Assembly: GCA_013389015.1 (NCBI GenBank)
Contig: JACAEE010000007.1
Coordinates: 9,159 to 73,158 of the forward strand
Source of the DNA: Hydrogenophilaceae bacterium
Lineage (GTDB): Bacteria > Pseudomonadota > Alphaproteobacteria > Caulobacterales > Aquidulcibacteraceae
Reading direction: 5' to 3'
Length of the DNA: 64,000 nucleotides
Every line of letters starts with the position of its first letter. Within the stretch, counting starts at the first letter, position 1. The position numbers and the translations under genes were made by a program. Positions 3,773 to 53,444 of this stretch are shown here, one piece after another. The notes under the pieces were generated by a model that worked only from the letters and a program-made list of their open reading frames with translations, was not told the origin of the DNA and searched no databases.

Positions 3773-3810
3773 TATCGCCGCTGCGATGCGTCCTCATCGC
3801 GGAGGCGATA
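3773..3810. promoter_or_regulatory. two tandem copies of the recurrent ATCGC-N4-GCGAT palindrome in the divergent TBDR / ligase promoter region
   Basis: TATCGCCGCTGCGATG (3773-3788) and CATCGCGGAGGCGATA (3795-3810), separated by 6 nt. Together they form a 38-nt imperfect palindrome. Confidence 0.5.
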
Positions 3811-3891
3811 GATGCGCCCCCCGGCTTGGCCTTGGTCTGTTGCGCCAGGACAACTAGCCAAGGCCGCAGGACGCCAAAGGGATCATCCAGC

Positions 3892-5181
3892 TTGGACCGC
3901 CGCTATTTTGATTCGGTTGAGACTGCGCCCCGACACGAGATCGAGGCGCGCCAATGGGCGCGCCTGCGTGAGCAAGTGCAGCATACGTTCGCACGTTCCC
4001 CCCTTGTGCGTCGCGAATGGGAGAAGGCCGGGCTGAGCCCGGACGACATTCGCTCAATCGATGATTTCAAGGCGCGGGCGCCGTTCATTGACAAGGCCGC
4101 GATCCAGGCCTTCCGCGCCGAGACCGGCGACCCGATGGGCGGGGTGCTGGCGGGGGACCTGAGCGAGGTCGCGCTCTACGGCACGAGTTCGGGGACGACG
4201 GGCGATCCGACCATGTTCGCCGAGAGCTGGACGGCGCGCGGGGAGATGATCTTCACGCCGCGCGACATCTGGGAGACGGGTCTCAGGCCCGGCGATCACC
4301 TGATCGACGTGCAGATGGTGATCCGCTCGATCGGGCGCCTCTATTTCCAGGACATGGGCGCGACCCCCATCTTCTTCCACCATGACGCCAGCGACGTGGC
4401 GCGGATGCTCAGCGCATGCGTGCGCTACCGGCCCACCTGGATGTTCCATATCAGCTCGCCGCTGATCTACGCGCTCGAGCGGATGGAGGCGGAGACCAAG
4501 GTCGATCTTCGCGACGCGTTCTCCTCGTTCAGGGGCGTGATCTATGGCGGCGAGCCAATGGGGCGCCACAACCGCGACCTGATGGAGCGCTGGGGCGTGC
4601 CGGTGTTCGAGTTCACCAGCCTCGGCGATTGCGGCACCGCCTGGGAATGCCAGGCGCGGGACGGATTCCATGCGTGGGAAGATCTCGTGCTGTTCGAGGT
4701 GATCGATCCGGTCAGCGGCGCGCCAGTGGAATCCGGCGGGCGCGGGGAGATGGTGTGCACGGCGCTGGTCGACAAGGTCGATCCGCTGATCCGGTACCGC
4801 TCCGGCGATCTGGTGCGCTGGACCAATGAAAAGTGCGCGTGCGGGCGCACGCATGCGCGCTATTGGCCGCTTGGGCGCGTCGGCGACGAAACGCTGGTCA
4901 ACGGGCGCAGCGTGATGCCGACCGATGTCTGGACGGCGATCGAAAGCGTGCCAGAGACCGCCGCGGGGCTGTTCCAGATCATTCGCCCGCAGCGCGACCT
5001 GAGCGAACTGAAGCTCCGCGTCGGCTATGACGGCCAGCCTGAGCTGAACGATCTCGCCGCGCGCGTCGCAAAGGCGGTGGAGGCTGCGACGGGCATTCGC
5101 CCCAACGTGGAGCTGATGCCCAACACCGAGATCTTGAAGTTCGGACCACCCCACAAGATTCCACGGACGACGCGCCAATGA
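3892..5181 (+). CDS. PaaK-like (phenylacetate-CoA ligase / coenzyme F390 synthetase family) adenylate-forming enzyme
   Basis: P-loop YGTSSGTTGDPT, PaaK-type C-terminal region (IRYRSGDLV ... CACGRTH ... GRVGDE), about 430 aa. The track ORF starts at TTG 3739. I prefer TTG 3892 (LDRRYFDSVETAP...), which has AAGGGA about 8 nt upstream, but the start is uncertain. Confidence 0.8.
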   Translation: MDRRYFDSVETAPRHEIEARQWARLREQVQHTFARSPLVRREWEKAGLSPDDIRSIDDFKARAPFIDKAAIQAFRAETGDPMGGVLAGDLSEVALYGTSSGTTGDPTMFAESWTARGEMIFTPRDIWETGLRPGDHLIDVQMVIRSIGRLYFQDMGATPIFFHHDASDVARMLSACVRYRPTWMFHISSPLIYALERMEAETKVDLRDAFSSFRGVIYGGEPMGRHNRDLMERWGVPVFEFTSLGDCGTAWECQARDGFHAWEDLVLFEVIDPVSGAPVESGGRGEMVCTALVDKVDPLIRYRSGDLVRWTNEKCACGRTHARYWPLGRVGDETLVNGRSVMPTDVWTAIESVPETAAGLFQIIRPQRDLSELKLRVGYDGQPELNDLAARVAKAVEAATGIRPNVELMPNTEILKFGPPHKIPRTTRQ

Positions 5182-5948
5182 GCACCGCCCCCCATTACGG
5201 CCTCATCGGCGGCGCGCCGAGCGACGCAAGCGCCGAAACGCTCCGGGCGCTCGAAGGCTACAATCGCGGGCACCGCAAGAATCCCGTCGTGGCCTGCGCC
5301 TCGGACATGTGGGCCGTCGGCTGCGCAGAGACGGCGGAAGGGCCAGTCGACTATCCCGTTTCATGGACCGACATCGAAAGCGACGAGGCGTGGGCGAAGG
5401 AGATGCTGGACCTCGCCGGCGTCGGCCGGGGCGATTTCGCGTTCTTCTCCTATATCTACTCGCGCTCCGCCCATACTTGGCCATGGCTGAAGATGGGGTT
5501 CGAACGCGGCGCAAGACTGGCGACGGGGATGCCGACGCAATGGGACGCCTATCGGCTGGAAATGTATTGCCGCCTGTTCGCGGTGAAGCTCGTCTTCGGG
5601 CTCACGCCGGAGGCGCTCGACGGACTAGAAGGCGCCGGCCATCGGCTGAGTGAGGTGTTCGGAAAAGTCGAGCGGATCATCGCCGTCGGCGAGGCGTGGC
5701 GGCGGCTGCGCGAGGCGGGCCTCGCCCCGTGGAAGCTGCATTGGCTGGGGCCGATCGTGGCGATCGATCCGTGCGACGGCGCCGGCGCGCGATTCGACTA
5801 CAAGCAATGGACGCTCGAAGGCGACGGCGGCCGATTGACGATCTCCAACGCCCTGCCCCGCGCCTGCGCATTCACTCGAACGCCGCTCGCCGCAAAGGGG
5901 CGGATCGGCGTCGCCGATGGCGAGCCTCGCTTGTTCATGGAAGAGTGA
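5178..5948 (+). CDS. hypothetical protein, translationally coupled to the PaaK-like ligase (possible P-loop-less PaaK N-domain relative)
   Basis: 256-aa ORF with ATGA overlap to the upstream stop. Codon bias matches its neighbours. I saw no recognisable catalytic motif, only weak by-eye resemblance to the PaaK N-domain core (GVGRGDFAFFSY ... GARLATGMP ... LVFGLTPEAL). Confidence 0.6.
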   Translation: MSTAPHYGLIGGAPSDASAETLRALEGYNRGHRKNPVVACASDMWAVGCAETAEGPVDYPVSWTDIESDEAWAKEMLDLAGVGRGDFAFFSYIYSRSAHTWPWLKMGFERGARLATGMPTQWDAYRLEMYCRLFAVKLVFGLTPEALDGLEGAGHRLSEVFGKVERIIAVGEAWRRLREAGLAPWKLHWLGPIVAIDPCDGAGARFDYKQWTLEGDGGRLTISNALPRACAFTRTPLAAKGRIGVADGEPRLFMEE

Positions 5949-6998
5949 ATGGCCGAAGCCGAAACCTTCGACGCGGCGAAGTTTGCGGCGTGGGCCGACG
6001 AAGTCTTGCCGGAGCTCGGCGCCGGCCCTGTTCACTGCACAATCCTAACCGGCGGCGCCAGCAACATCGTGATGCGCGTTGAGCGCGACGGGGCGCCAAT
6101 GGTGCTGCGCCGGCCGCCCCGGACGCCGCGCCCGGACAGCCTCAAGATCATCGGCCGCGAAGCGCGCGTGCTCGCGGCGCTCGGGGCGACGGATGTTCCC
6201 CATCCGCGATTTCGCCGCGCCTGCGAGGACGCGAGCGTGATCGGCGCGCCTTTCTATGTCATGGATTGGGTGGACGGCTTCGTCGGCTATCCGCTTGAAC
6301 GCTTGCCGGCGCCGTATGATCGCGCCGGCGGCGCGCGCAGCAGCTTGGCGTTCGCGCTCGTCGACGGAATCGCGCGGCTGGCCAATGTCGATTATCGCGC
6401 CGTCGGCCTCGATGATTTCGGCAAGCCGGAAGGATTCCTGGAGCGCCAGGCGTCGCGCTGGATGGCGCAGCTCGCTTCCTACAAGGAGAGCGAAGGCTAT
6501 GAGCCGCGCGACATTCCAGGCCTCGCCTATGTGGCCGACTGGCTGGCGGCGAACACGCCGCCGATGTCGAAGCCCGGCATCATTCACGGCGACTACAGCC
6601 TCGCCAACGCGATGTTTCACCATGGCGCGCCGGCGCGGCTGGCGGCCATGATCGATTGGGAGCTGGCGACGATCGGCGATCCGCTGCTGGATCTGGGATG
6701 GGTTCTTTATGCGTACCGCGGACGCGATGAGCGTTCGCCGCCGGCCGGATATTTCGATGCGTCCGATTTCCCTTACCGAGAAGCGCTTGCGGATTATTAT
6801 GCGGAGCGCACGGGCCGATCGATCGAGCACCTGACCTATTACATGGTGCTGGCGCAGTTCAAACTCGGCGTGATCATGGAGCGCCAGTACGCGCGCATCT
6901 TGAACGGGCGCCAGACGATGGATGTCGCCGGCGATGCGGGCGCGTTCGTGGCGCGGCTGATCGGCAAGGCCTATGCGATGGCGCGCGGAGAGGCGTGA
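5949..6998 (+). CDS. APH-fold phosphotransferase family protein (ACAD10/11 N-domain or LvaA-like kinase)
   Basis: GGASNIVMRV nucleotide loop, catalytic IIHGDYSLANAMF, and MIDWELATIGDPLLDLGW. ATG lies immediately after the upstream stop (TGAATG). Confidence 0.85.
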   Translation: MAEAETFDAAKFAAWADEVLPELGAGPVHCTILTGGASNIVMRVERDGAPMVLRRPPRTPRPDSLKIIGREARVLAALGATDVPHPRFRRACEDASVIGAPFYVMDWVDGFVGYPLERLPAPYDRAGGARSSLAFALVDGIARLANVDYRAVGLDDFGKPEGFLERQASRWMAQLASYKESEGYEPRDIPGLAYVADWLAANTPPMSKPGIIHGDYSLANAMFHHGAPARLAAMIDWELATIGDPLLDLGWVLYAYRGRDERSPPAGYFDASDFPYREALADYYAERTGRSIEHLTYYMVLAQFKLGVIMERQYARILNGRQTMDVAGDAGAFVARLIGKAYAMARGEA

Positions 6999-7008
6999 AG
7001 GCGGCGTG

Positions 7009-8295
7009 ATGATCGATTTTCCACTCGACGCGGCATTCCAGGCGAAGGTGGATTGGACGCGCGCGTTCGTACGCGAACACGTCGAGCCGCTCGATCATCT
7101 CTGGCCGGCGCCGACCGCGCCCTATGACCGATCGCTGACCAAGGCGCGCGCCATCCTGAAGCCGCTGCAGGAGGAGGTGCGCCGGCAGGGCTTGTGGGCT
7201 TGCCATCTCGATTCCGATCTCGGCGGCCCCGGCTACGGGCAGGTGAAGCTCGTCCATATCAACGAAATCCTGGGGCGCACCAATTGGGGGCCGGTGGTGT
7301 TCGGCTGCCAGGGCCCCGACAGCGGCAATTCGGAAATCCTCGCGCGGTTCGGAACCGAGGCGCAGAAGGACAGATGGCTGGCGCCGCTGCTCGCGGGCGA
7401 GATGTATTCCTGCTTCTCGATGACCGAGCCGGATGGCGGCGCCGATCCGACGCTGTTCAAATGCCGCGCGGTGCAGGACGGCGACGATTGGATCATCGAG
7501 GGCGAGAAATGGTATTCCTCGCACGCCAATTTCTGCGACTTCCTGATCGTCATGGCGGTGACCGATCCGGAAGCGGCGCCCTATGAGCGGGCGAGCATGT
7601 TCATCGTGCCCGCCGATGCGCAAGGAATCGAGTTCGTCCGCGAGACCGGGCTCTTCACCGAGCCGCTGGGCGGCAAGGGCGGCCATCCGTATGTGCGCTA
7701 CAATCGCGTGCGCGTTCCCGCCTCCGCGATGCTTGGTCCGCGCGGCAAGGGATTCATGGTCGCGCAATCGCGCCTCGGCGGGGGGCGCATCCATCACGCG
7801 ATGCGCACGATCGGGCTGGTGCAGAAGTGCCTCGATATGATGGGCGAGCGCGCGCAAAGCCGGGCGCTGCGCAACGGGCCGCTCTCCAAGATCCAGGGCG
7901 TGCAATACGACCTCGCCGATTCCTGGATCGCGTTGCAGCAATTCCGCCTGCACGTGCTCTATGTCTCCTGGCTGGTCGACCAGGGGCGCGAGGATGACTT
8001 GCGGCTGGCGATCTCGGGGCTGAAGGTCGCCACCGCCACTATCGCCAAGGACGTCGTGTGGCGGGCGATGCATCTGCACGGCGCGCTCGGCGTCTCCAAC
8101 GAGATGCCGTTCGCGCACATGCTGATGACGGCGGCGATGCTGGGCCTGGCGGACGGGCCGACGGAGGTGCATCGCTCCGTCGTCGGAAGATTGGTGGCGC
8201 GCCAGTATCAAGCCGCGGAGGGGCCGAACCCGAGCGAGCATTTGCCGAGCCGACGCGCCGCGGCGCTGCGGCTTCATCCCGATGCGCTGGATTGA
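7009..8295 (+). CDS. acyl-CoA dehydrogenase family protein, ACAD10/11-like clade
   Basis: ACAD fold motifs (CFSMTEPDGGADP, GGGRIHHAMRTIG, LHGALGVS) and the C-terminal LADGPTEVH signature that I associate with the ACAD10/11 clade. ATG 7009 (MIDFPLD) lies 11 nt after the kinase stop. Confidence 0.85.
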   Translation: MIDFPLDAAFQAKVDWTRAFVREHVEPLDHLWPAPTAPYDRSLTKARAILKPLQEEVRRQGLWACHLDSDLGGPGYGQVKLVHINEILGRTNWGPVVFGCQGPDSGNSEILARFGTEAQKDRWLAPLLAGEMYSCFSMTEPDGGADPTLFKCRAVQDGDDWIIEGEKWYSSHANFCDFLIVMAVTDPEAAPYERASMFIVPADAQGIEFVRETGLFTEPLGGKGGHPYVRYNRVRVPASAMLGPRGKGFMVAQSRLGGGRIHHAMRTIGLVQKCLDMMGERAQSRALRNGPLSKIQGVQYDLADSWIALQQFRLHVLYVSWLVDQGREDDLRLAISGLKVATATIAKDVVWRAMHLHGALGVSNEMPFAHMLMTAAMLGLADGPTEVHRSVVGRLVARQYQAAEGPNPSEHLPSRRAAALRLHPDALD

Positions 8296-8298
8296 GCC

Positions 8299-9053
<755 letters not shown>

Positions 9054-9057
<4 letters not shown>

Positions 9058-9821
9058 GGCTGGAGGGAAAGATCGCCGCGATCACTGGCGGGGCAAGCGG
9101 CATCGGCCTCGCCATCGCGCGACGATTTGCGGCGGAAGGCGCCGCAGTGGTCCTGCTGGACCTCAATGAAGACGGTGAGCGAGAAGCGTGCGCTCTACGC
9201 GAAGCCGGGTTCCAGGCGCGGTTCATGCGGCTCGATGCGAGCGACGAAGCCGGCGTCGACAGCGCCGTCGAGGAGATCGAGAGATCGATCGGTCCGATCA
9301 GCATCCTGGTGTGCTCGGCAGGCGTTACGGGCGCCCCGGGGCCGTTCTACACAACCGACGTGGCGGTGTTCGAGCGCACTTTGCGGGTGAACCTGATCGG
9401 GCCGTTCCTGATCGGCAAGGCGGTCGCGGCGCGCATGCTGGCGGAGAAACGCGGCGGCTCGATCATCAACATCTCCTCCGTCGGCGGCCAGCTCGGCGTG
9501 GCGGACTCCTGGCCGTATTGCACCAGCAAGGCCGGGCTCGACATGCTCACCAAGACGATGGCGCTGGCGCTCGCGCCGCACGGGGTGCGCGTCAACGCCA
9601 TCGGCCCTGGCCCTACCGAGAGCCCGATGACGGCGCACATTCCGACCGAGGCGCGCGAGATGATGCTCTCGCGCACGCCGCTCGGCCGGTTCGGCGCGGC
9701 GGAGGAGATCGCGGGCGTGGCGTTATTCCTGGCGAGCGAGGAGTCCAGCTACGTCACGGGGCAAACGATCTATGCCGACGGCGGGCGCCTGGCGCTGAAT
9801 TATGTGATGCCGAAACGCTAG
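9054..9821 (+). CDS. SDR family oxidoreductase
   Basis: MRLEGKIAAITGGASGIGLAIA and YCTSKAGL. ATGA overlap with the upstream SDR. The upstream extension of the track ORF (8892) was rejected. Confidence 0.9.
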
Positions 9822-10555: not shown

Positions 10556-10618
10556 CGCCCTCTCCTTGGCGCATTGTTCGTCGCCGGCGGCGCGGGCGCA
10601 AGGCGCAGGCCAGCGAAG

Positions 10619-10634
10619 CATCGCCGGTGCGATG
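10619..10634. promoter_or_regulatory. ATCGC-N4-GCGAT palindrome in the divergent SDR / MFS intergenic region
   Basis: CATCGCCGGTGCGATG has perfect 6-bp arms. Confidence 0.45.
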
Positions 10635-10727
10635 AACGCTCAAGCGAAGGGGCGGCCGCAAGCGCGCGATGCATAATGGGTCGCGGCCCTCCATCCGAGC
10701 ACGCCGCAATGCAGCGAGGAGAGACGC

Positions 10728-11993: not shown

Positions 11994-12029
11994 GGGACGG
12001 CTCCTTGCCTGGCGACGCAAGACCGCGCT

Positions 12030-12821
12030 ATGGCCTTAGCCATGAGCAACGCGCGCCTGGACAAGGACGAGGCTGGCGGGCCGCGCGCCATGTCGCGCGT
12101 GCTCAAATTGCTGAGCGTCTTGGCCAAGGCGCCTGAAGGCCTGTCGCTGACCGACCTCGCGGCCGCGCTCGACACCGCCAAGAGCACTATGCTCGCCAGC
12201 CTCAAGCCGCTTGCGGCGGACGATTTTCTTGTGGTCGAGGGCAATCTCTATCGCCTTGGGCCCCGGGCCTTCCGGCTGGCCGCCGAGATCAGCTCCGCAT
12301 GGTCGCTGCCGCGAACCCTGCGCGGATATCTGCGCACGCTGGCTGACCGCAGCGGCGAAAGCGTGGGCCTCGCCGTGCTCGACGCGGAAATGCGCCGCTC
12401 GGTTTATGTCGACGTGATCGAAAGCGCGCGCCCCGTGCGCTATGCGCTCAAGATCGGCATGAGCGGGCCGCTGCACTCGACGGCGGCGGGGCGCGTGCTG
12501 CTCGCGCATCAGCCGGAAGAGTACACGCAAGCGTTTCTGAAGACGGGCAAGCTGGCGGCCTTCACGCCGCGCACGACGACCGACGCCAAACAGCTCGCCG
12601 CGCAGCTCGAGCAGGTGCGGCGCGACGGATATTGGCTGAGCATCGGCGAGTCGATCGAGGATTCGGCGGCGATCGCCGCGCCGGTCTTCGGGCCGAACGG
12701 CGATATTCTCGCCGCGCTGACGATCGGGGCGCCGTCGGACCGCCTGCAGGCCAATCTCGACGCCCTGCGCGCGGCGCTGCTCGAGGTCGCAGCGCACGCG
12801 TCGGGCCGCGCCGAGGGCTGA
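12030..12821 (+). CDS. IclR family transcriptional regulator
   Basis: N-terminal wHTH (RVLKLLSVLAKAPEGLSLTDLAAALDTAKSTMLASLKPL) and C-terminal IclR effector domain (GYWLSIGESIEDSAAIAAPVFG). The exact start could be 12030 or a nearby internal Met. Confidence 0.85.
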   Translation: MALAMSNARLDKDEAGGPRAMSRVLKLLSVLAKAPEGLSLTDLAAALDTAKSTMLASLKPLAADDFLVVEGNLYRLGPRAFRLAAEISSAWSLPRTLRGYLRTLADRSGESVGLAVLDAEMRRSVYVDVIESARPVRYALKIGMSGPLHSTAAGRVLLAHQPEEYTQAFLKTGKLAAFTPRTTTDAKQLAAQLEQVRRDGYWLSIGESIEDSAAIAAPVFGPNGDILAALTIGAPSDRLQANLDALRAALLEVAAHASGRAEG

Positions 12822-12823
12822 GG

Positions 12824-14480: not shown

Positions 14481-14509
14481 GCGTTCTCCAGCCGATGCGT
14501 CGCCATAGT

Positions 14510-15316: not shown

Positions 15317-15404
15317 CCTGTGTTCCTGTACCGGTCCGGCCGCCTCCCAGTCGCCATAACCAGGGCGACGCGGGCAAGGGGATGCGCAAGCGCGGCCCAG
15401 GATA

Positions 15405-15420
15405 TATCGACCAGTCGATA
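15405..15420. promoter_or_regulatory. ATCG-N6-CGAT palindrome in the divergent crotonase / CoA-transferase region
   Basis: TATCGACCAGTCGATA has perfect 7-bp arms and a 2-bp spacer. Confidence 0.45.
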
Positions 15421-15508
15421 CTCCCCGCCCGCCGGGGCCGCTCCGCTTGCCGGCGCCGTCACTTTCCCGACATGCAAGAGGCTCGGACGAAAATGGGGAC
15501 CCGCAGGC

Positions 15509-16735: not shown

Positions 16736-16765
16736 TCCAAATCCTCTCCGCGACAGGAGCCGATC

Positions 16766-19422: not shown

Positions 19423-19476
19423 TTGACGCTGCGGGCGGCCGGGCGTATGGTTTTCTGAACATCGTTCGAAAATCCA
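19423..19476 (+). promoter_or_regulatory. candidate sigma70-type promoter with an overlapping imperfect palindrome upstream of the crotonase / NMO / TauD / LuxEC operon
   Basis: TTGACG (19423-19428), 17-nt spacer, TATGGT (19446-19451). The imperfect palindrome TGGTTTTCTGAACATCGTTCGAAAATCCA (19448-19476) overlaps the -10 and +1 positions. Confidence 0.4.
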
Positions 19477-27431: not shown

Positions 27432-28241
27432 CTACGCCCCCCGCCGCGGCGCCTTGATGACGATCCCGCCGCGCCCGCCGGCGACGAGTTCGTCCAGCTG
27501 CGCGCGAAGATGGCGGCGCCACCATTTCTCCGCCCCTTCGCGATCGCGTTCGCGCAGCAGCTCGATGAGCCGCTCCTTGGCGCGGATATGGCCGCGGCGC
27601 CCGCGCGCGGCTTCTTCGCCCTCGTAGATGAGGACATTGCCGATCTGCTCGGATTGCGCGCGCATCAGCTCACCCAAGATCTGCACGAACATGGAGAGAG
27701 TCGTGTTGGCGCAGATGTCGGCGAGGATCTGGTAGAAGCGCTCATGCTCGCGCGCGAACGCGTGCACGTCCTCCACCAGCGTCGCCTGCTGCGCGGCCGA
27801 TTGCGCCAGGCGCTGGATATCCTTCATGGCCGCCGTATCGGCGATGAAGCCCATGATGCTGGGTTCGATCGTCAGCCGCGCGACCGAGAAGTCCGCCTGG
27901 CTCGCGCCATGCGCTTCGAGATAGACGCCGGTATGCTCGGCCACCATGGCCGCGCCGGGCACATTGTAGCGCGCGCCGCCCGAGGCGCCGCGGGCGATGC
28001 GGACGAGGTGCTTGGCCTCCAGGATGCGCATGGCCTCGCGCACGGTGGGACGCGAGGCCTGGAAGCGCGCGCGCAATTCCGGCTCCGAAGGCAGCGCATC
28101 GCCGTGGCGAAGATTGTTGCGGCGGACATAGTCACGCACCCAATCCGCAATCAATTCAGCGGTTTTCGGCACTTTGAGGCTGTCGCCGAGGGGCGCCGCC
28201 CCCACCCCCGCAGACCGGGCCGCATGCTTCGTCATCGCCAT
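27432..28241 (-). CDS. GntR family transcriptional regulator, FadR (FCD) subfamily
   Basis: wHTH LPSEPELRARFQASRPTVREAMRILEAKHLV followed by an all-helical C-terminal domain. Start is MAMTKH at 28241 (or 28235). Confidence 0.85.
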   Translation of the reverse strand: MAMTKHAARSAGVGAAPLGDSLKVPKTAELIADWVRDYVRRNNLRHGDALPSEPELRARFQASRPTVREAMRILEAKHLVRIARGASGGARYNVPGAAMVAEHTGVYLEAHGASQADFSVARLTIEPSIMGFIADTAAMKDIQRLAQSAAQQATLVEDVHAFAREHERFYQILADICANTTLSMFVQILGELMRAQSEQIGNVLIYEGEEAARGRRGHIRAKERLIELLRERDREGAEKWWRRHLRAQLDELVAGGRGGIVIKAPRRGA

Positions 28242-28248: not shown

Positions 28249-28266
28249 CAATTATATATATAATTG
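28249..28266. promoter_or_regulatory. 18-bp perfect, almost pure A/T palindrome in the divergent GntR / amidohydrolase promoter region (candidate operator)
   Basis: CAATTATATATATAATTG. It overlaps a consensus TTGACA (28264-28269) on the plus strand and a TATAAT on the minus strand. Confidence 0.6.
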
Positions 28267-30577: not shown

Positions 30578-30593
30578 GATCGAAAGGCCGATG
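30578..30593. promoter_or_regulatory. weak ATCG-N6-CGAT core site upstream of the acyl-CoA synthetase gene
   Basis: GATCGAAAGGCCGATG. Only the 4-bp cores match. Confidence 0.25.
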
Positions 30594-36675: not shown

Positions 36676-36691
36676 AATCGTATGGACGATT
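36676..36691. promoter_or_regulatory. ATCG-N6-CGAT palindrome in the divergent ACAD / FadB-like region
   Basis: AATCGTATGGACGATT has perfect 6-bp arms. Confidence 0.4.
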
Positions 36692-44172: not shown

Positions 44173-45308
44173 CTCAAACCGAGCCCCCGCGCTATGATGC
44201 CGCGCAGGATTTCCCGCGTGCCGCCGCGCAAGGAGAAGGACGGCGCGATCTGCAGCAACAACGCCAATGCCCGCGCGAACGCGGAATCCGAAGCCAGATC
44301 GACGTCGCTGATCGCTTGGATCATGCGCGGCAGAGCCTGCTCGAAGCTGTTGCCGAGGTCCTTGACGATCGCGGCCTCGAGCGCGGGGTCTTCGCCGGCG
44401 GCGAGCTTTGCCGCCGTCGAGCGCGACATGTGCCGCAGCGTCCACAATTCCGCGGTCAGGCGCCCGATCAGCTCCGCAGCCGCCGGCGCGGGGCGATCGC
44501 CGCAGACGCGGATGAACTCCAGCAGCAGCGCATAGCTCGAAAGGTAGCGCTCCGGGCCCGAACGTTCGAGAGAAAGCTCAGCGGTGACCTGGCGCCAGCC
44601 CGCTCCCTCCTCGCCCACGCGCATGGCGTCGGGCACGAGGACATTCTCAAGAAACACTTCGTTGAAGTCATGGCCGCCCACGAGGTCGATGATCGGCCGC
44701 ACGGCGACGCCCGGGCTCTTCAGGTCGATCAGGAATTGCGTGAGCCCTTCCTGACGCTGGCTGCGCTCGCCGGTGCGCACAAGCGCGATCATATAGTGGG
44801 CGTGATGCGCATTTGTGGTCCACACCTTCTGGCCGCTGATCCGCCAATGATCGCCCTCGCGCTCGCCGCGCGTGCGCACCGAGGCGAGGTCGGAGCCGCT
44901 GCCGGGCTCGCTCATGCCGATGCAGGTGTAGAGTTCGCCGGCAGCCATGCGCGGCAGCAAGTCGCGCCGCTGCGCCTCGGTTCCGTAGCGCAGCAGAAGC
45001 GGCCCGCCCTGGCGATCGGCGATCCAATGCATGCCGACTGGCGCGCCGGCGGCCAGCAATTCTTCAAGCACGATGTAGCGCTCGAGCGGATGGCGCCCGC
45101 CGCCGCCATAGTCCTTCGGCCAGATCATGCCGATAAAGCCGGCCTTTCCGAGCGCCCTGGTGAAGGTTCTGTCCGCGACCGCCCATGAGTTCGCGCGCGA
45201 CGCTGCGTCACCCGCGGGCTGATGCTCAGCGAGGAACGCACGCACCTGCGCCCGCAACACGCCGGGATCGACGGGCGGCTCGAAGGGACGCGTGGAAAAA
45301 GTCTGCAC
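44169..45308 (-). CDS. acyl-CoA dehydrogenase, class A
   Basis: YTCIGMSEPGSGSDLAS, and C-terminal [21 protein letters not shown]. Probable GTG start at 45308 (VQTFSTRPFEPP). Confidence 0.8.
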   Translation of the reverse strand: MQTFSTRPFEPPVDPGVLRAQVRAFLAEHQPAGDAASRANSWAVADRTFTRALGKAGFIGMIWPKDYGGGGRHPLERYIVLEELLAAGAPVGMHWIADRQGGPLLLRYGTEAQRRDLLPRMAAGELYTCIGMSEPGSGSDLASVRTRGEREGDHWRISGQKVWTTNAHHAHYMIALVRTGERSQRQEGLTQFLIDLKSPGVAVRPIIDLVGGHDFNEVFLENVLVPDAMRVGEEGAGWRQVTAELSLERSGPERYLSSYALLLEFIRVCGDRPAPAAAELIGRLTAELWTLRHMSRSTAAKLAAGEDPALEAAIVKDLGNSFEQALPRMIQAISDVDLASDSAFARALALLLQIAPSFSLRGGTREILRGIIARGLGLR

Positions 45309-45370
45309 GGCCCAAGCATGCCGCGCCGACGGCGTCGCGAACAAGGCGCAGGCGCCGGCCAGTCCCGGGC

Positions 45371-45386
45371 TATCGCAGCCGCGATA
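45371..45386. promoter_or_regulatory. ATCGC-N4-GCGAT palindrome in the divergent ACAD / crotonase region
   Basis: TATCGCAGCCGCGATA has perfect 6-bp arms. Confidence 0.5.
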
Positions 45387-45466
45387 TGGCTTTCGCGCCG
45401 CTTCCGCGGCTGTCGCCTGCAGGCCGAAGGGAGTAAGCAAGCGTCAGGAAGAACCGGAGCTGACGA

Positions 45467-46237
45467 ATGGGCATCGAGTACAGCGTCGCCGAGGGCGTCG
45501 CCACGATCACCATCAACCGCCCGGAGCGGAAGAACGCCATCCTCCTGGCGATGCGCACCGACATCCAGCACGCGTTCGAAAAGGCGCAGGACGATGACGA
45601 CGTGCGCGCCATCATCCTGACGGGCGCGGGCGGAGATTTCAGCGCCGGCGCCGACGTCGGCGAAATGGGCGGCGGCGGCACGCGCGGCGCGCTCATGCGC
45701 ATGCGCCACATGCACCGGATGTGCCGCGCCATCGCGCAGACCAACAAGCCGGTGATCGCCGCCGTGAAGGGCGTGTGCATCGGCATGTCGTGGGCGATGG
45801 CGCTGGCCTGCGACATCGTGGTGGCGGCCGCGGACGCGCGCTTCCAGTTCGCGTTCCGCCATATCGGGCTTGCGCCGGACGGCGGCGCCGCCTTCCTGCT
45901 CACGCGCTATGTGCCGCTGCAGCGGGCCAAGGAGATTCTCTATTCGGGCCGCTTCGTCAGCGGGACGGAGGCGGAGAAGCTCGGCCTTGCGCTCTATGCG
46001 CTGCCGGCCGAGGAGGTGATGATCAAGGCGCAGGAACTGGCGCGCGGGTTCGCCGAATCGCCGACGATCGCGATCGGCATGGCGAAGCGCCAGTTGGACG
46101 CGGCGCCGGCGCAGACGTTCGAACAGGCGCTGGATTTCGAAGCCAACATCCAGCCGCTGATGGTGACGACCGAAGACTTCAAGGAAGGCACGAGCGCCTT
46201 CAAGGAGAAGCGCAAGCCGAGCTATCGCGGGAACTGA
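45467..46237 (+). CDS. enoyl-CoA hydratase/isomerase family protein
   Basis: ATITINRPERKNAI, LTGAGGDFSAGAD, and AAVKGVCIGMSWAMALACD. Confidence 0.9.
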   Translation: MGIEYSVAEGVATITINRPERKNAILLAMRTDIQHAFEKAQDDDDVRAIILTGAGGDFSAGADVGEMGGGGTRGALMRMRHMHRMCRAIAQTNKPVIAAVKGVCIGMSWAMALACDIVVAAADARFQFAFRHIGLAPDGGAAFLLTRYVPLQRAKEILYSGRFVSGTEAEKLGLALYALPAEEVMIKAQELARGFAESPTIAIGMAKRQLDAAPAQTFEQALDFEANIQPLMVTTEDFKEGTSAFKEKRKPSYRGN

Positions 46238-46240
46238 ACG

Positions 46241-46615
46241 GTGAGCGAATCCGGGCCGGACAAGCAATTCGTGGATTTCCTGCGTGCAGGCCGCTTCATG
46301 CTGCAACGTGCGGTGAACGATGGACGCTACGTCTTCTATCCGCGCGCCGCCGCGCCCGGGGACGGCGCGGCGCTTGAGTGGGTGGAGGCTTCCGGCGCTG
46401 GATGCGTCTATTCGACGACCGTGGTGCGCAAGAAGCCGCCTGAGCCTAGCTACAATGTCGCCCTGATCGACCTCGCCGAAGGGCCGCGCATGATGAGCCG
46501 CGTCGAAGGCGTGGCGCCCGAGGACGTCAAGATCGGCATGGCCGTCCGCGCCAAGATCGTCGAGGGCGGCGATGGACCTTACGTCGTCTTTGTTCCCGCG
46601 GACGGCGCGCCGTGA
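46241..46615 (+). CDS. DUF35 / OB-fold protein lacking the Zn-ribbon cysteines
   Basis: 124 aa. GCVYSTTVVR ... NVALIDLAEGPRMMSRV ... GMAVRAKI matches the DUF35 OB-fold. The region equivalent to the ribbon (RAVNDGRYVFYPRAAAPGDG) has no Cys. GTG start. Confidence 0.7.
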   Translation: MSESGPDKQFVDFLRAGRFMLQRAVNDGRYVFYPRAAAPGDGAALEWVEASGAGCVYSTTVVRKKPPEPSYNVALIDLAEGPRMMSRVEGVAPEDVKIGMAVRAKIVEGGDGPYVVFVPADGAP

Positions 46616-47766
46616 GCGACAGGTTTCCACGCGGCGAAACCGCCATCGTCGGCGCGGCGACCTTCGGCATCGGCAGGAGCCCCGGATTCGAGGCGTCCGA
46701 CCTCGCCGCCAGGGCGAGCGTCGCGGCGCTGGCGCAGGCGGGACTGAAGCCCGCGGACGTGGACGGCCTCTTCTTCTGCCATTCGACCGACACGCTTGGC
46801 GGGCTCTCATTCGCGCAATATCTGGGCGTGCAACCGAGATTCATCGACAATAGCCGGCTCGGCGGCTCGTCGTTCCAGGCCTATGTCGAACTGGCGGCGT
46901 GGCTGCTCTCGGCGGGCGCGATCGACGTGGCGCTGGTGGCGTACGGCAGCAACCAAGCGACGGCCGCAGGCAAGCTCGTCAACACCGTCCGCCCGATGGC
47001 GTACGAAGCTCCCTATGCGCCGCTCAACCCGGTTTCATCCTACGCGCTCGCAGCCGCGCGCTACATCCACGCGTTCGGCGCGCGGCGAGAACAGTTCGGC
47101 GCTGTCGCGCTCGCGGCGCGCGCGTGGGCGCAGCGCAATCCCGAGGCCTATCGGCGTGAACCGCTCACGATGGAGACCTATCTCGCGGCCCGCATGGTAT
47201 CGGACCCGCTGTCGACGCTCGATTGCTGCCTGGTGACGGACGGGGCCGGCGCGCTCGTCATGACCCGCGCCGATCGCGCACGGGAGATCGCGCCGCGGCC
47301 GGTCTATGTTCTCGGCGCAGCGACCGAGACGACGCATCGTGAAATCGCCTGGATGCCGGACTTGACCACGACCGGCGCCGCGCGCGCCGGCGCGCGCGCC
47401 TATGCGCAGGCAGGCGTCAGGCCGACGGACATCTCGGTCGCCGCGCTCTATGACGCCTTCACGATCAACACGATCTTGTTTTTGGAGGATCTCGGCTTTT
47501 GCGCCAAAGGCGAAGGCGCCGCGTTCGTCGAGGACGGGCGGATCGCGCCGGGAGGCGCGCTGCCCCTCAACACGCATGGCGGGGGTCTCTCCTGCGTGCA
47601 TCCAGGGATGAACGGAATCTTCACGCTGATCGAAGCGACGCGCCAGTTGCGCGGCGAAGCCGGGGAGCGTCAGATCGCCGACGCCAAGCTCGCGCTGGCG
47701 CACGGCAATGGCGGCGTGCTCTCAAGCCAATCGGTGGTGATCCTGGGGGGCCCGGACACGGCGTAG
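46612..47766 (+). CDS. thiolase-like (SCP-x / Ltp-type) protein
   Basis: 384 aa with NTHGGGLSCVHPG ... HGNGG at the C-terminal end. GTGA overlap with the DUF35 gene. Confidence 0.75.
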   Translation: MSDRFPRGETAIVGAATFGIGRSPGFEASDLAARASVAALAQAGLKPADVDGLFFCHSTDTLGGLSFAQYLGVQPRFIDNSRLGGSSFQAYVELAAWLLSAGAIDVALVAYGSNQATAAGKLVNTVRPMAYEAPYAPLNPVSSYALAAARYIHAFGARREQFGAVALAARAWAQRNPEAYRREPLTMETYLAARMVSDPLSTLDCCLVTDGAGALVMTRADRAREIAPRPVYVLGAATETTHREIAWMPDLTTTGAARAGARAYAQAGVRPTDISVAALYDAFTINTILFLEDLGFCAKGEGAAFVEDGRIAPGGALPLNTHGGGLSCVHPGMNGIFTLIEATRQLRGEAGERQIADAKLALAHGNGGVLSSQSVVILGGPDTA

Positions 47767-47780
47767 CGGCTCCGTCGCAA

Positions 47781-48587
47781 CTAGCCCATGAGCTGCATCG
47801 GAACGCGCTCGCCCGTGCGCGGCGGCGCATAGCGCGAAGACGGCGTGGACGGCGAAAGACGTGCAACAGCGCCACGCAGCACTTGCACGAAATAGTCGCG
47901 GCGCGCCTCGTATTGGGCGTCGGTGAGCAGCATGCCGAGCGCCAGGCCCTCGTCCGCAGGGCCGTGGGAGAGAAGCATGGCGATCATACGCCCGCCCCGC
48001 TCGCTCGCCACAGCGTAACCCTGCGCAACCGCCTCATCGCAATCCTGCGCCATCTTCTCGAACGGAACGCGCATGTCCGGCGCGCTTTCGGCGTTCACAC
48101 GGTGCAAGAGCTTGCGCACATAGTTGCGATCCATCGCGGCAAGCATCGCTCGTCCCATCGCCGAATGCGCGATCGGCGCTGATGCGCCCTCCGCTACGCG
48201 CAACTCTGAACCAGGCGGCGAAGCCGCGTGGATGTATTGGACGTCGAGGCCGACACGGTTCCCAAGAACGACGGTCGCGCCGGTTTCCTTGGCGAGTTCG
48301 TCCATCATCGGCAGGAGATGGCCGTCGCGGAAAAGACGCGGCTGAACGCGAGCGCCCAAAACGGCCACACGCGCGGTCGGCCGATACGTCCTGGCGGCGC
48401 GATCGCGCGTCAGATAACCGAGCGCCACAAGACAGCTCAGCAATTCCGATGTGCTCGACTGCGGGTAGCCCATGGAACGCGCGATATCCATCACCGTGGC
48501 CTCGCTGCGATCGCCCTGGAAGTATTCAAGCACTTCAAGCGCGCGGCGCGCGGACTTGATCTTCTTGGGGTCCAAAGACCGAGCCAT
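47781..48587 (-). CDS. IclR family transcriptional regulator
   Basis: ALEVLEYFQGDRSEATVMDIARSMGYPQSSTSELLSCLVALGYL wHTH plus an IclR effector domain. Confidence 0.85.
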   Translation of the reverse strand: MARSLDPKKIKSARRALEVLEYFQGDRSEATVMDIARSMGYPQSSTSELLSCLVALGYLTRDRAARTYRPTARVAVLGARVQPRLFRDGHLLPMMDELAKETGATVVLGNRVGLDVQYIHAASPPGSELRVAEGASAPIAHSAMGRAMLAAMDRNYVRKLLHRVNAESAPDMRVPFEKMAQDCDEAVAQGYAVASERGGRMIAMLLSHGPADEGLALGMLLTDAQYEARRDYFVQVLRGAVARLSPSTPSSRYAPPRTGERVPMQLMG

Positions 48588-48613
48588 AAGATCCTCCCTT
48601 AAGTTTATGATGA

Positions 48614-48633
48614 TATGTTGTCATAACAACATA
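48614..48633. promoter_or_regulatory. inverted repeat immediately upstream of the IclR gene (candidate auto-operator)
   Basis: TATGTTGT CATA ACAACATA has perfect 8-bp arms, inside a locally AT-rich stretch 27 nt upstream of the start codon. Confidence 0.45.
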
Positions 48634-48694
48634 GGGGGCGCAAGAGGCTCGCTCAGCTTTTTTGAACTATCTTCGGTTTTTCGAACGCCGCTGT

Positions 48695-49465
48695 TCAGCC
48701 CAAAGCTTCGGGCCGCGCCACGAAGTCGATCGAATAGCGATAACGCTCCGGATGGTTCCGGGCGACAATCATTTCTATGGGGTTTCCAGACATATCATAA
48801 TAAATGCGCGTTACTTTCATGACGGGAGTCGTATCCTCCAGTCCTAAGTATTTGGCCGCCTGAGCGCCCGCGACATCGGCTTCAAGGACTTGCTCTGCTC
48901 GAACCACGCGGACGCCAAGTTTGTCTTCAACCATCCGGATCACGGGCAGCTTTTGACCCAAGTCCGCCGGCTTCACCTGCCTGCCGACCGAAACGCGCAG
49001 GTAGAGCTGGTGATAGCCCAACGGCGACTCATCGAGAAAGCTGAGCAGCTCAAGGCGCGTGCAGCGCGATCCGGGCTGCAGGCGAAGCCCGGCGACGGCC
49101 TCATCGGGCGCGTCGATCTCCTCCATGGAAAGCACTTGAGTCTCCAGCGCCCCGGCCGAAGCGAGGAACTCGTCCAGCGACCCCGACAGGCGCACCGAGC
49201 GCACGCCGCCCATGGAAGGCGGCGTCACGAACGTTCCCACGCCGCGACGCTTGGTGATCAAGCCCTTGGCGATGAGCGCGTCCAGCGCGCGGCGCACCGT
49301 GATGCGGCTGACGCCATATTGCGCGCAAATTCGCTCCTCCGTCGGCAGCGCCTCGCCGGCCTTGAACTCCTCTCGCTTGATGCGCGCGCGCAAATCGAGC
49401 TCAAGCTGGTGATAGAGCGGGATCGGACCGCCATTGAGTGAGGAGGGCTCCTGCAAAGGCTTCAT
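48695..49465 (-). CDS. GntR family transcriptional regulator, HutC (UTRA) subfamily
   Basis: PLYHQLELDLRARIKREEFKAGEALPTEERICAQYGVSRITVRRALDALIAKGLI plus a UTRA-like C-terminal domain. Start is ATG 49465 (or GTG 49468). Confidence 0.85.
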   Translation of the reverse strand: MKPLQEPSSLNGGPIPLYHQLELDLRARIKREEFKAGEALPTEERICAQYGVSRITVRRALDALIAKGLITKRRGVGTFVTPPSMGGVRSVRLSGSLDEFLASAGALETQVLSMEEIDAPDEAVAGLRLQPGSRCTRLELLSFLDESPLGYHQLYLRVSVGRQVKPADLGQKLPVIRMVEDKLGVRVVRAEQVLEADVAGAQAAKYLGLEDTTPVMKVTRIYYDMSGNPIEMIVARNHPERYRYSIDFVARPEALG

Positions 49466-49538
49466 CACTCATTTCTCACATCGATTTCCTGCCAATGCTA
49501 TCCCAAGGGCTGCATCGGCACGAACGGCCAAGCCGATC

Positions 49539-49554
49539 CATCGCATCGGCGATT
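49539..49554. promoter_or_regulatory. ATCGC-N4-GCGAT palindrome in the divergent GntR / acyl-CoA ligase region
   Basis: CATCGCATCGGCGATT has perfect 5-bp arms. Confidence 0.45.
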
Positions 49555-49627
49555 AGGCGTCGCGCTGCGACGGCGACATGATGGCGACGCATGGTTGACC
49601 AATCCTAACCGAAGGACCGCGGACGCA

Positions 49628-51103
49628 ATGACAGCAGACGCGCTCCTCGATCCGCGCGGCGCCGCATTGCCGGGCGCGCCTCTGGCGCTGCTGTTGGCCG
49701 CGCAGGCGCAACGCGATCCGAACCGCATCGCGCTGACGCTCACCGACGGGGCGCTCACACGCGCTGAGCTGGAAAAGCGCTCCAATCAGCGCGCGCGGCA
49801 ATTGCAGGAGGCCGGCGTCGGGCACGACGACGTCGTCGTCTTCGCGCTTCCCAACGGCGCCGCCTACTACGAGCTAATCTATGGGGTCTGGAAGCTCGGC
49901 GCCACGCCCATTCACGTGTCCCACAAGCTCACGCCGCGCGAGTTCGCCGAGATCATCTCGCTTGCGCAGCCCAAGCTTACCTTGACCGCGGACCTGCCGC
50001 TTTGCGCGGCGGATCCGGGCGCATTCGACGATTCGTCCTTGCCTCTGAAAATCGCCAGCCGATGGAAGATTTCGACAAGCGGCGGCAGCACGGGCCGACC
50101 GAAGCTGATCGTCGATCCCAATCCCGCGCTATGGGGCGTGGAGAAGCAGGGCCATCGCCGCCTGCCCGATTCCACGATCATCAATCCCGGCCCGCTCTAT
50201 CACAGCGCGCCGTTCGGGATGATGATCCCCGCGCTCGGCGAAGGCTGCCATGTGGTCGAGATCGGCCGCTTCGACGCAGAGACTTATCTGGCGAACGTGG
50301 AGCGCCATCGCGCCACCTGGGCTTATCTCGTGCCCACGATGATGGCGCGCATCGCCAATCTGCCTGCGCACGTGCTGGCGAAGTACGACATCTCCAGCCT
50401 TCACACCTTGCTGCACATGGCCGCGATTTGTCCGCCCGCCGTGAAGCGCGCGTGGATCGATCTGCTCGGGGCTGACGCCGTGTGGGAAATCTATGGCGGC
50501 TCAGAGCGCATCGGCTCGACCATCATCGGCGGGACGGAATGGCTCGCGCATCCAGGCTCGGTGGGGCGGCCGCGCGAAGGGATCGACCTCCAGATTCTCG
50601 ACGAGCAAGGCGCGCCATTGCCGGCCGGCGCGGTGGGAGAAATCTTCTTCCGGCGCGCGGGCGGCCCCGAATCCACGTTCCTCTATATCGGCGCTGAAGC
50701 TCGCAGGCGCGGCGACTGGGCCTCGTTCGGCGACATGGGCTGGATCGATTCGGAAGGCTATCTCTACATCGCCGACCGGCGGACCGACATGATCGTGAGC
50801 GGCGGTATCAACATCTTCCCGGCCGAAATCGAGGCGCAGATCGCAACGCTGCCGGGCGTGGTCGACAGCGTCGTCGCGGGCGCGCCCCATGCCGATCTGG
50901 GCGCGGTTCCGCACGCCTTCGTGCAACTGCAAACGGACTCGCCGCGCTGGAGCGAAGCATCGTTGCTTACGGCGCTGCGCGAACGCCTGGCGCCGCACAA
51001 GTTGCCGCGCGCGATCACCTTCGTGGATCAGCCGCTGCGCGATGATTCAGGAAAGGTCCGTCGCGCCGAATGGCGTGATCGCCTGCTTGCGCAATCGCGC
51101 TGA
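49628..51103 (+). CDS. AMP-dependent synthetase/ligase (acyl-CoA ligase)
   Basis: STSGGSTGRPKLI P-loop, YGGSE, and GDMGWIDSEGYLYIADRRTDMIVSGGINIFPAEIE. I prefer ATG 49628 over TTG 49595. Confidence 0.9.
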   Translation: MTADALLDPRGAALPGAPLALLLAAQAQRDPNRIALTLTDGALTRAELEKRSNQRARQLQEAGVGHDDVVVFALPNGAAYYELIYGVWKLGATPIHVSHKLTPREFAEIISLAQPKLTLTADLPLCAADPGAFDDSSLPLKIASRWKISTSGGSTGRPKLIVDPNPALWGVEKQGHRRLPDSTIINPGPLYHSAPFGMMIPALGEGCHVVEIGRFDAETYLANVERHRATWAYLVPTMMARIANLPAHVLAKYDISSLHTLLHMAAICPPAVKRAWIDLLGADAVWEIYGGSERIGSTIIGGTEWLAHPGSVGRPREGIDLQILDEQGAPLPAGAVGEIFFRRAGGPESTFLYIGAEARRRGDWASFGDMGWIDSEGYLYIADRRTDMIVSGGINIFPAEIEAQIATLPGVVDSVVAGAPHADLGAVPHAFVQLQTDSPRWSEASLLTALRERLAPHKLPRAITFVDQPLRDDSGKVRRAEWRDRLLAQSR

Positions 51104-51112
51104 GGCGCAATC

Positions 51113-52333: not shown

Positions 52334-53367
52334 GGAGTCCCCGTTGAGGCTGCGAGCCCGTCGCGGACTTTGGCGTCGGTCAAGCGGGCGTTGAACCAGT
52401 GCGGATAGATCGGCGCCGGCGCGGTCAGGCGGTCGAGCTCCTGCAGCATCTCGGCGTCAAGACGGACGCCGACGGCGGCGAGATTGTCCTCAAGCTGGGC
52501 GAGCTTCGCCGACCCGATCAGCACGCTCGTCACCACCGGCTTCGACAAGAGCCAGGCCAACGCAAGCTGCGCCACGGTGCAGCCGGCGCGCTCAGCCATT
52601 CCGCGCATGGCCTCGACCAGCGCGAACCCCTTCTCGCGATCAAACGGGACGATGTCGAAGGCCGCGTGGCGGCCCTCTTTGGCGATGTTCTCGCGCGTGT
52701 ACTTGCCGCTCAAGAAGCCGCCCCCCAGGGGGCTCCATACGAGCATGCCGAGACCGGCATGGCGAAGCAGCGGCGCTATGTCATGCTCCACTTCGCGATT
52801 GAGCAGAGAGTAGTGATACTGGCCCGACGCAAATCGCGCCCAAGCGCGCTCCTTCTGCATCTGCACCGCGATCGCAGCGCGCCACGACGACCAGTTCGAG
52901 AAGCCGAGATAACGCACTTTTCCGGCCTGGACGAGTCGGTCGAGGGCCTCGAGCGTCTCCTCGAGCGGGGTGAACGCGTCTTCCTTGTGCGCCTGATAGA
53001 GGTCGATGTAGTCGGTGTTCAGCCGCTTCAGGCTCGCTTCACAGGCCGCGATGACATGGTGGCGCGAAAGCCCCGCCTCAGTGATCGCAGCCCCGGAGCG
53101 AAAGCCGAGCTTGGTGGCGATGACGACATCCTTGCGCCGCGCGCCGAGCGCTCTTCCGAGCATCTCCTCGGATTGGCCGCCGGAATAGATGTCGGCGGCG
53201 TCGAAGAAATTGACCCCGGCGTCGAGCGCGGCCGCGACCATGCGCGTTGCGCCGTCCTGATCGACCTTGCCGAGCGCGGGGTTGGCGGTGTTGACGCCGA
53301 ACGTCATCACGCCAAGGCATGCCCGCGACACGATGAGGCCGGTGTCTCCCAGCTTGGCGTATTGCAT
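52330..53367 (-). CDS. aldo/keto reductase
   Basis: MQYAKLGDTGLIVSRACLGVMTFG and FFDAADIYSGGQSEEMLG. GGAG RBS upstream. ATGA overlap with the P450 start. Confidence 0.9.
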   Translation of the reverse strand: MQYAKLGDTGLIVSRACLGVMTFGVNTANPALGKVDQDGATRMVAAALDAGVNFFDAADIYSGGQSEEMLGRALGARRKDVVIATKLGFRSGAAITEAGLSRHHVIAACEASLKRLNTDYIDLYQAHKEDAFTPLEETLEALDRLVQAGKVRYLGFSNWSSWRAAIAVQMQKERAWARFASGQYHYSLLNREVEHDIAPLLRHAGLGMLVWSPLGGGFLSGKYTRENIAKEGRHAAFDIVPFDREKGFALVEAMRGMAERAGCTVAQLALAWLLSKPVVTSVLIGSAKLAQLEDNLAAVGVRLDAEMLQELDRLTAPAPIYPHWFNARLTDAKVRDGLAASTGTP

Positions 53368-53428
53368 CCGAGGCTCCTGAGCGAATAATCCCGTCAACGG
53401 ACGCGAAGCGCCAACGCCGGATCCCAAA

Positions 53429-53444
53429 CATCGCATCGCCGATC
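53429..53444. promoter_or_regulatory. weak ATCG-N6-CGAT site upstream of the AKR-P450 operon
   Basis: CATCGCATCGCCGATC. The right arm has one mismatch to GCGAT. Confidence 0.25.

Follow-up and report, generated by a model that had tools for sequence, protein, structure and literature searches.

The 64,000-nucleotide stretch of DNA analyzed here (the window; positions 9,159 to 73,158 of contig JACAEE010000007.1, assembly GCA_013389015.1, labeled Hydrogenophilaceae bacterium) contains a palindrome, ATCGC-N4-GCGAT, hereafter M1, that recurs between the genes of a large catabolic cluster. M1 is almost certainly a transcription-factor binding site, a reading based on its recurrence at the same promoters in other alphaproteobacteria. 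We consider it probable (roughly 60%) that M1 is the operator of a locally encoded transcription factor, likeliest the IclR-family regulator IclR47781, and that it coordinates some eight or nine catabolic promoters within a circuit of three regulators. The cluster spans ~50 kb and encodes adjacent pairs of acyl-CoA dehydrogenases (ACADs), many enoyl-CoA hydratases and thiolase-aldolase modules of the Ltp/ChsH2 type (ChsH2-OB), as well as CoA ligases, a CoA-transferase, a cytochrome P450 (P450), a TonB-dependent receptor (TBDR) and a major facilitator superfamily (MFS) transporter.

Exact copies of M1 occur five times in the window (66.6% G+C), at 3774, 3796, 10620, 45372 and 49540, against an average of 0.98 in 100 dinucleotide-preserving shuffles, none of which reached that count. 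The core form, ATCG-N6-CGAT, occurs 15 times (5.1 expected). Genes were mapped from third-position G+C and Pfam scans, with start codons refined by ribosome-binding sites and N-terminal sequences; the refined starts agree with the gene calls on near-identical metagenome contigs and leave 2534 bp, or 4.0% of the window, as intergenic DNA. This small fraction holds all five exact copies and nine of the 15 core matches, spread over eight intergenic regions, where ~0.25 core matches would be expected by chance. The remaining six core matches are scattered at chance level through 61.5 kb of coding sequence, which contains no exact copy, and the density of the core motif is thus ~36-fold higher between genes than within them. 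When all palindromes with arms of 4-5 bp and spacers of 0-12 bp were enumerated, M1 was the one that filled the most intergenic regions (eight). A preliminary description of the window had placed the motif solely in promoter-containing intergenic DNA, and a re-scan recovered each of its coordinates and sequences; an equal density in coding DNA had been set beforehand as the finding that would count against an operator, and the intergenic excess strongly favors one.

The bases outside the cores carry information as well. With a weight matrix trained solely on sites from other genomes, and scoring solely positions outside ATCG and CGAT, the intergenic copies score from -1.8 to +4.4 and the coding copies from -5.8 to -1.2. 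Divergent genes flank eight of the nine intergenic copies; the neighbors of the ninth, at 30579, share a strand. The flanking start codons are 70-148 bp away from all nine. The sites are as follows.

3774 to 3787: M1 site ATCGCCGCTGCGAT, between the divergent genes for the TBDR and a PaaK-like ligase; first of a tandem pair; non-core score +4.2.
3796 to 3809: M1 site ATCGCGGAGGCGAT, second of the tandem pair, its center 22 bp (two helical turns) from that of the first.
10620 to 10633: M1 site ATCGCCGGTGCGAT, between a gene for a short-chain dehydrogenase/reductase and the divergent MFS-iclR12030 operon.
15406 to 15419: M1 variant ATCGACCAGTCGAT, between divergent enoyl-CoA hydratase and CoA-transferase genes.
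30579 to 30592: weak core-only site ATCGAAAGGCCGAT, upstream of a CoA ligase gene at 30675; non-core score -0.6; doubtful.
36677 to 36690: M1 variant ATCGTATGGACGAT, between divergent ACAD and FadB-like genes.
45372 to 45385: M1 site ATCGCAGCCGCGAT, between divergent ACAD and enoyl-CoA hydratase genes; the best conserved site.
49540 to 49553: M1 site ATCGCATCGGCGAT, between the divergent genes for a HutC-type GntR regulator and a CoA ligase.
53430 to 53443: degenerate M1 ATCGCATCGCCGAT, upstream of an operon encoding an aldo-keto reductase (AKR) and the P450.

Conservation was assessed in 80 genome loci (numbered with the prefix L) fetched via homologues of the HutC-type GntR, using its recognition-helix peptide SRITVRRAL or wing peptide RRGVGxFV, and annotated with the window proteins. 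Eight of the nine sites recur at the corresponding promoters of Hyphomonadaceae, Caulobacter, Brevundimonas, Rhizomicrobium, Parvularcula or sphingomonads, where they stand as conserved islands within otherwise diverged intergenic regions; the exception is 30579, for which the loci offered no orthologous region to compare. Across 30 orthologous loci there are 6.9 exact copies of M1 per 100 kb, as opposed to 0.8-1.1 in 33-45 control loci of equal G+C, a 6.5- to 9-fold difference. Together with the enrichment in the window, the conserved orthologous promoters support the earlier proposal that M1 is the operator of a dimeric DNA-binding protein with a local regulon.

Conservation is clearest between the ACAD and hydratase genes, where the 19-mer CATATCGCGGCTGCGATAG is shared by the window and six of ten aligned loci (Hyphomonadaceae metagenome-assembled genomes (MAGs), Caulobacter sp. 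BK020 and Brevundimonas) and is also present in L169; single-base variants occupy the other four aligned loci, Rhizomicrobium among them, and the surrounding DNA has diverged while M1 was kept. Upstream of the gntR orthologue, M1 is found at a distance of 50-230 bp despite five different upstream neighbors (L017, L016, L030, L035, L170). TBDR promoters carry M1 in L032, L038 and L170, and an M1-like site precedes IclR12030 orthologues in L014, L017, L020, L093, L095, L096, L098, L099 and L137. The 15406 variant aligns with ATATC(G/A)-N6-CGAT at the same place in L011, L014, L015, L017 and L020, and the 36677 variant is supported by M1 sites ~100-125 bp upstream of FadB-like genes in six sphingomonad loci (L022, L023, L025, L028, L032, L039). 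At 53430 the window has a degenerate site where its four closest relatives (L008, L009, L010, L058) have a full M1, located 52-66 bp ahead of the AKR gene. The copy at 30579, indistinguishable in sequence from background, may be a chance match.

The window derives from an uncultured alphaproteobacterium, and proteins identical to its own are encoded on metagenome contigs. The next relatives of the window proteins, at 74-82% identity, come from MAGs of Hyphomonadaceae and Caulobacterales and from Terricaulis silvestris. Proteins that are 100% identical, over the aligned region, to the GntR and IclR proteins of the window belong to a MAG publicly labeled Hydrogenophilaceae, while all near relatives are from Hyphomonadaceae, Caulobacterales or Terricaulis; the Hydrogenophilaceae label probably reflects a mistake in binning or classification.

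M1 might in principle not be a protein site at all, and instead reflect chance or base composition, an RNA hairpin or a repetitive extragenic element: intergenic DNA is slightly more A+T-rich than coding DNA, and the 5-bp arms allow a hairpin to be drawn. We regard this as highly improbable given the shuffling result, the restriction of every exact copy to 4% of the sequence and the retention of M1 at orthologous positions across orders. The flanks of the M1 copies are unrelated to one another, contrary to a dispersed or mobile repeat, and all sites lie upstream of genes and none after a convergent pair, contrary to an extragenic repeat. Of 61 non-redundant sites, with consensus yATCGc-N4-gCGATr, 28 have complementary bases at arm positions 5 and 10, compared with 26.7 by shuffling (P=0.38). 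This absence of covariation argues against an RNA hairpin, and the half-sites appear to vary independently, as protein contacts would; the 'compensatory arm changes' previously read into the variant sites do not hold up.

If M1 is an operator, the question becomes which protein binds it. The four local regulators pointed out earlier are genuine by Pfam, although NCBIfam names none of them and places no enzyme of the window at an equivalog cut-off.

12030 to 12821, plus strand: IclR12030, an IclR-family regulator with HTH_IclR and IclR_C domains; a 259-residue public homologue implies a start at 12042.
27432 to 28241: FCD-type GntR regulator.
47781 to 48587, minus strand: IclR47781, also with HTH_IclR and IclR_C domains; the putative M1 binder.
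48695 to 49465, minus strand: HutC-type GntR regulator with GntR and UTRA domains, preceded by an M1 site.
48617 to 48630: palindrome GTTGTCATAACAAC (GTTGT-N4-ACAAC), hereafter M2, on the iclR47781 promoter; putative operator of the HutC-type GntR.

The binder of M1 is most likely IclR47781 and not either GntR, an assignment that we make with moderate confidence from three lines of evidence: the co-occurrence of M1-like sites with IclR47781-like genes, an invariant recognition helix, and sites upstream of the sphingomonad orthologues. Among 51 distant metagenome loci that hold homologues of IclR12030, 13 have an IclR47781-like gene (37-48% identity) that chances to adjoin the IclR12030-like gene, divergently oriented, and 38 have none. 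An ATCR-N6-YGAT palindrome is present in six of the 13 loci with the IclR47781-like neighbor and in one of the 38 without it (Fisher P=5.8e-4). The layout of the shared region is fixed, with ATC(A/G)-N6-(C/T)GAT on the side of the IclR47781-like gene and GTTCG-N6-CGAAC on the other. All 28 aligned relatives of IclR47781, down to 37% identity, share the recognition-helix segment PQSSTSxLL without change (one with A for E), and in sphingomonads the orthologous genes have a near-consensus M1-like site ~110 bp upstream. The IclR47781 homologues listed go down to 46% identity and are all in the same cluster type. From the divergent pairs with their fixed operator layout in soil metagenome loci, it would seem that the two-IclR module is older and more widely spread than the alphaproteobacterial cluster. 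Divergent IclR47781-like/IclR12030-like pairs in L107, L110, L111, L115, L117 and L146 lie beside ACAD pairs and amidohydrolase genes of soil bacteria.

The assignment to IclR47781 also draws on the other regulators appearing to have operators of their own, M2 with the HutC-type GntR and a third motif with IclR12030, which leaves IclR47781 for M1. M2, with a CTTG -35-like block on one side and the iclR47781 ribosome-binding site on the other, is near-invariant in an alignment of the 107-bp gap between gntR and iclR47781. It occurs at this promoter, just after gntR, in 13 loci of the cluster type (Caulobacterales and relatives; 0.23 expected) and is kept there also in L030, L089 and L092, where gntR does not adjoin iclR47781. 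It is also found 20-140 bp upstream of GntR homologues, retrieved by the same recognition-helix or wing peptide, in 16 distant loci, as against 0.18 expected, from Rokubacteria, Methylomirabilota, Verrucomicrobia, Burkholderiales, Clostridia, Paenibacillus and Chloroflexi. Operators of the GntR family share a GT..AC signature, which M2 fits and M1 lacks. The HutC-type GntR therefore most likely binds M2 and not M1, with iclR47781 as its probable conserved target in this lineage, and M2 looks like a widely conserved operator of this GntR clade. The preliminary description was right to remark that M1 misfits a GntR operator; it is M2 that tracks the HutC-type GntR.

An autoregulated GntR that represses the cluster through M1, with M2 belonging to IclR47781, would account for several observations. 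In many genomes M1 precedes the gntR orthologue by 50-230 bp, with five different upstream neighbors, there are sphingomonad loci with this GntR and many copies of M1, often with no IclR within 10 kb, and M2 always travels with the iclR47781 promoter. We nevertheless consider such an arrangement unlikely. In the 16 distant loci M2 directly precedes the GntR homologues, and in 15 of them no nearby IclR gene was detected; no enrichment of M1 is found near these distant GntR homologues, the familial GT..AC signature is absent from M1, and the IclR47781-like genes in distant divergent pairs are preceded by M1-like palindromes and not by M2. The other GntR of the window, the FCD-type, likely has a separate operator, the perfect A+T-rich palindrome CAATTATATATATAATTG at 28249-28266, which occupies the 74-bp divergent region between its gene and an amidohydrolase gene.

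IclR12030, for its part, appears to be a member of the M1 regulon that most likely binds a different, GTTCG-type motif, hereafter M3 (GTTCGAAAA or GAAC-N3-GTTC). Exact copies of GTTCGAAAA number four in the window, three of them intergenic. The M3 elements of interest are the following.

3690 to 3704: M3-like element CCGTTTTTCGAACGG, between the TBDR start and the M1 pair.
19451 to 19472: inverted repeat TTTTCTGAAC-atc-GTTCGAAAA, upstream of a hydratase operon at 19493, with a perfect counterpart upstream of the orthologue in L016.
48658 to 48686, minus strand: two direct repeats, GTTCGAAAAA and GTTCAAAAAA, upstream of the -35-like block of iclR47781; the second direct repeat is a one-mismatch copy, GTTCAAAAA.

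In a metagenome scan anchored on IclR12030 homologues, the DNA upstream of 59 distant homologues (39-57% identity) contains GTTC-N8-GAAC in 26, GTTCG-N6-CGAAC in 14 and GAAC-N3-GTTC in 12, and these three palindromes are absent from all 59 coding controls. No ATCG-type M1 site was found upstream of the same 59 genes. It could be argued that IclR12030 binds M1 as an autoregulated regulator, M3 then belonging to IclR47781 or to some other factor: M1 or a near-M1 precedes iclR12030 or its operon in the window, L014, L017 and L020, a two-mismatch candidate is present in L011, and six of 13 close metagenomic orthologues have M1 or near-M1 upstream. We give this little credence. The other seven close orthologues have no upstream M1, no IclR12030 orthologue is present in any M1-rich sphingomonad locus, and among the 38 distant homologues that have no IclR47781-like neighbor, GTTC-N8-GAAC precedes 16 and an M1-like site only one.

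Another possibility is that M1 is bound by a factor encoded outside the window, whether global or from another cluster, of which the local regulators are merely regulon members. M1 is present at all three local regulator promoters (gntR and MFS-iclR12030, and in sphingomonads iclR47781), as might be expected under a master regulator. This, too, seems improbable to us: M1 is confined to this cluster type, with none in the promoter regions of 57765-60747 and only the 0.8-1.1 copies per 100 kb of the control loci, and in unrelated contexts M1-like sites go with IclR47781-like genes. IclR47781 thus remains the preferred binder.

The geometry of the promoters offers some indication of what IclR47781 might do at M1. 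In the region between the ACAD and hydratase genes, conserved -35-like (TTG) and -10-like blocks lie ~25 bp from each edge of M1, and in the gntR-ligase region such blocks lie ~25 bp from M1 on the gntR side. The center of M1 is accordingly near -67 for both divergent ACAD/hydratase promoters and near -58 for the gntR promoter, measured from inferred starts. With M1 centered at ~-58 to -68 and midway between divergent promoters, a role in activation seems slightly favored over promoter occlusion. In L092, M1 is 49 bp upstream of M2, and M2 overlaps the -10 element. The ACAD gene at 44169 has an apparent GTG start at 45308 (VQTF...) that is conserved in nine of ten other aligned loci, and a conserved -10-like block only ~5-8 bp upstream of it (45308-45345) suggests that the ACAD mRNA is leaderless.

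These elements can be assembled into a circuit in which the HutC-type GntR would repress iclR47781 via M2, overlapping the -10 region; an inducer would release GntR, IclR47781 would be made, and the catabolic operons, which it is proposed to control via M1, would be turned on. IclR47781 may bind as a dimer at single M1 sites and as a tetramer at the tandem pair 3774/3796, and its action via M1 on the gntR and MFS-iclR12030 promoters could provide feedback. The targets of IclR12030 would be the GTTCG-type repeats that precede iclR47781, the TBDR gene and the operon at 19493. In its fullest form, the proposal is that GntR, IclR47781 and IclR12030, each with its own operator, constitute a conserved feedback cascade over steroid-type clusters in Caulobacterales, Sphingomonadales and related alphaproteobacteria, with IclR47781 activating from about -60 at some nine promoters; we offer this only tentatively, and think it somewhat more likely to be wrong in part than wholly right.

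The substrate governed by this regulon is probably steroid-type, judging from the gene content. Steroid catabolic clusters are marked by a KshA-type Rieske oxygenase, KstD, an Ltp2/ChsH2 aldolase and heteromeric acyl-CoA dehydrogenases; the window has Ltp/ChsH2-OB genes and ACAD genes in adjoining pairs, and no gene for KshA or KstD. The orthologous loci L168 and L170 have Rieske ring-hydroxylase genes beside the same regulators, and L170 also has a gene for a KstD-like flavoprotein.

Several points weigh against the picture as a whole. The assignment of M1 to IclR47781 is made partly by elimination, and the positive co-occurrence test covers 13 loci only. The M1-rich sphingomonad loci L021, L023 and L032-L035 have a GntR homologue and no IclR47781 within 10 kb. 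In Caulobacterales, iclR47781 has no upstream M1, whereas gntR and iclR12030 do, which is the pattern expected of simple autoregulation by GntR or IclR12030. A scan of 45250-49700 for sigma-70 promoters of the E. coli type finds none, so the promoter positions are those of the conserved blocks alone, and the direction of regulation is correspondingly weakly indicated. Finally, no window protein reaches the NCBIfam cut-off for a named steroid enzyme.

The proposed arrangement has partial counterparts in several characterized systems. As with PcaR/PcaU/PobR (TIGR02431) and MhpR, an HTH_IclR regulator is encoded inside the catabolic cluster, and palindromic sites are found between divergent promoters, where they abut the -35 or lie upstream of it. 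PcaR and PobR activate transcription from sites resembling GTTCGATAATCGCAC, and the GTTCG-N6-CGAAC associated with IclR12030 homologues is exactly of that type. Both local IclR proteins match TIGR02431, IclR47781 at 64 bits and IclR12030 at 135 bits, far short of its cut-off of 284.75, and by score neither is a member of the PcaR/PcaU/PobR subfamily. M1 departs further, its half-sites being oppositely arranged (ATCGC-N4-GCGAT) and its genes belonging to an acyl-CoA/steroid-type cluster and not to the beta-ketoadipate pathway.

A second parallel is with KstR and KstR2, the TetR repressors of actinobacterial steroid catabolism. There, too, one palindrome recurs at many divergent promoters of a large cluster of ACAD, hydratase, thiolase and ligase genes, and two or more regulators divide the cluster. 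The protein family, operators and phylum are different, however, and KstR sites overlap their promoters whereas M1 is apparently upstream of them. HutC-subfamily operators, such as the dre sites of NagR/DasR and those of HutC and TreR, have a GT-N-TA-N-AC core; the window encodes a member of this subfamily with a palindrome of the family type, M2, adjoining it, and M1 differs in having no GT..AC core. TtgV and BlcR are IclR proteins that bind paired sites as tetramers. The M1 pair at 3774/3796, with centers 22 bp apart, would similarly accommodate a dimer of dimers bound along a single helical face, although unlike the TtgV and BlcR sites most M1 sites are single. A search of PDB sequences returned generic IclR structures only, with 2xrn/2xro and 3mq0 listed.

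How steroid and alicyclic-acid degradation is controlled is well understood in actinobacteria (KstR, KstR2) and in part in Comamonas. Neither M1 nor these regulators turned up in the literature that could be searched, where a regulator or operator for such alphaproteobacterial steroid-type clusters is essentially undescribed; a study of Novosphingobium tardaugens reports no regulatory gene near its steroid cluster. We conclude that M1 is a genuine and conserved operator that had not been described before; as a kind of element it is ordinary, not surprising in principle and of interest chiefly to specialists in bacterial steroid and alicyclic-acid catabolism. It allows the regulon to be delimited in related genomes by sequence alone, and with its candidate binder it supplies specific probes and proteins for binding assays. 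It also points to candidate sensor proteins for pathway intermediates, and to promoters that might be used to switch such clusters on for bioremediation or steroid biotransformation.

A few other features of the window deserve mention. An APH-type phosphotransferase gene lies directly upstream of, and overlaps, an ACAD gene (5949-8295), and the same pairing recurs in L035 (Sphingomonadaceae). At 53548-54150, between the AKR-P450 operon and a block (54239-57764) that encodes a hybrid histidine kinase as well as two response regulators, there is an open reading frame of 200 residues; related contigs have it as a called gene and record no Pfam match for it. A DUF7662 gene and, after it, a PIN-domain gene (60748-61520) resemble a toxin-antitoxin pair; they lie next to an O-methyltransferase gene, at the margin of the catabolic cluster.

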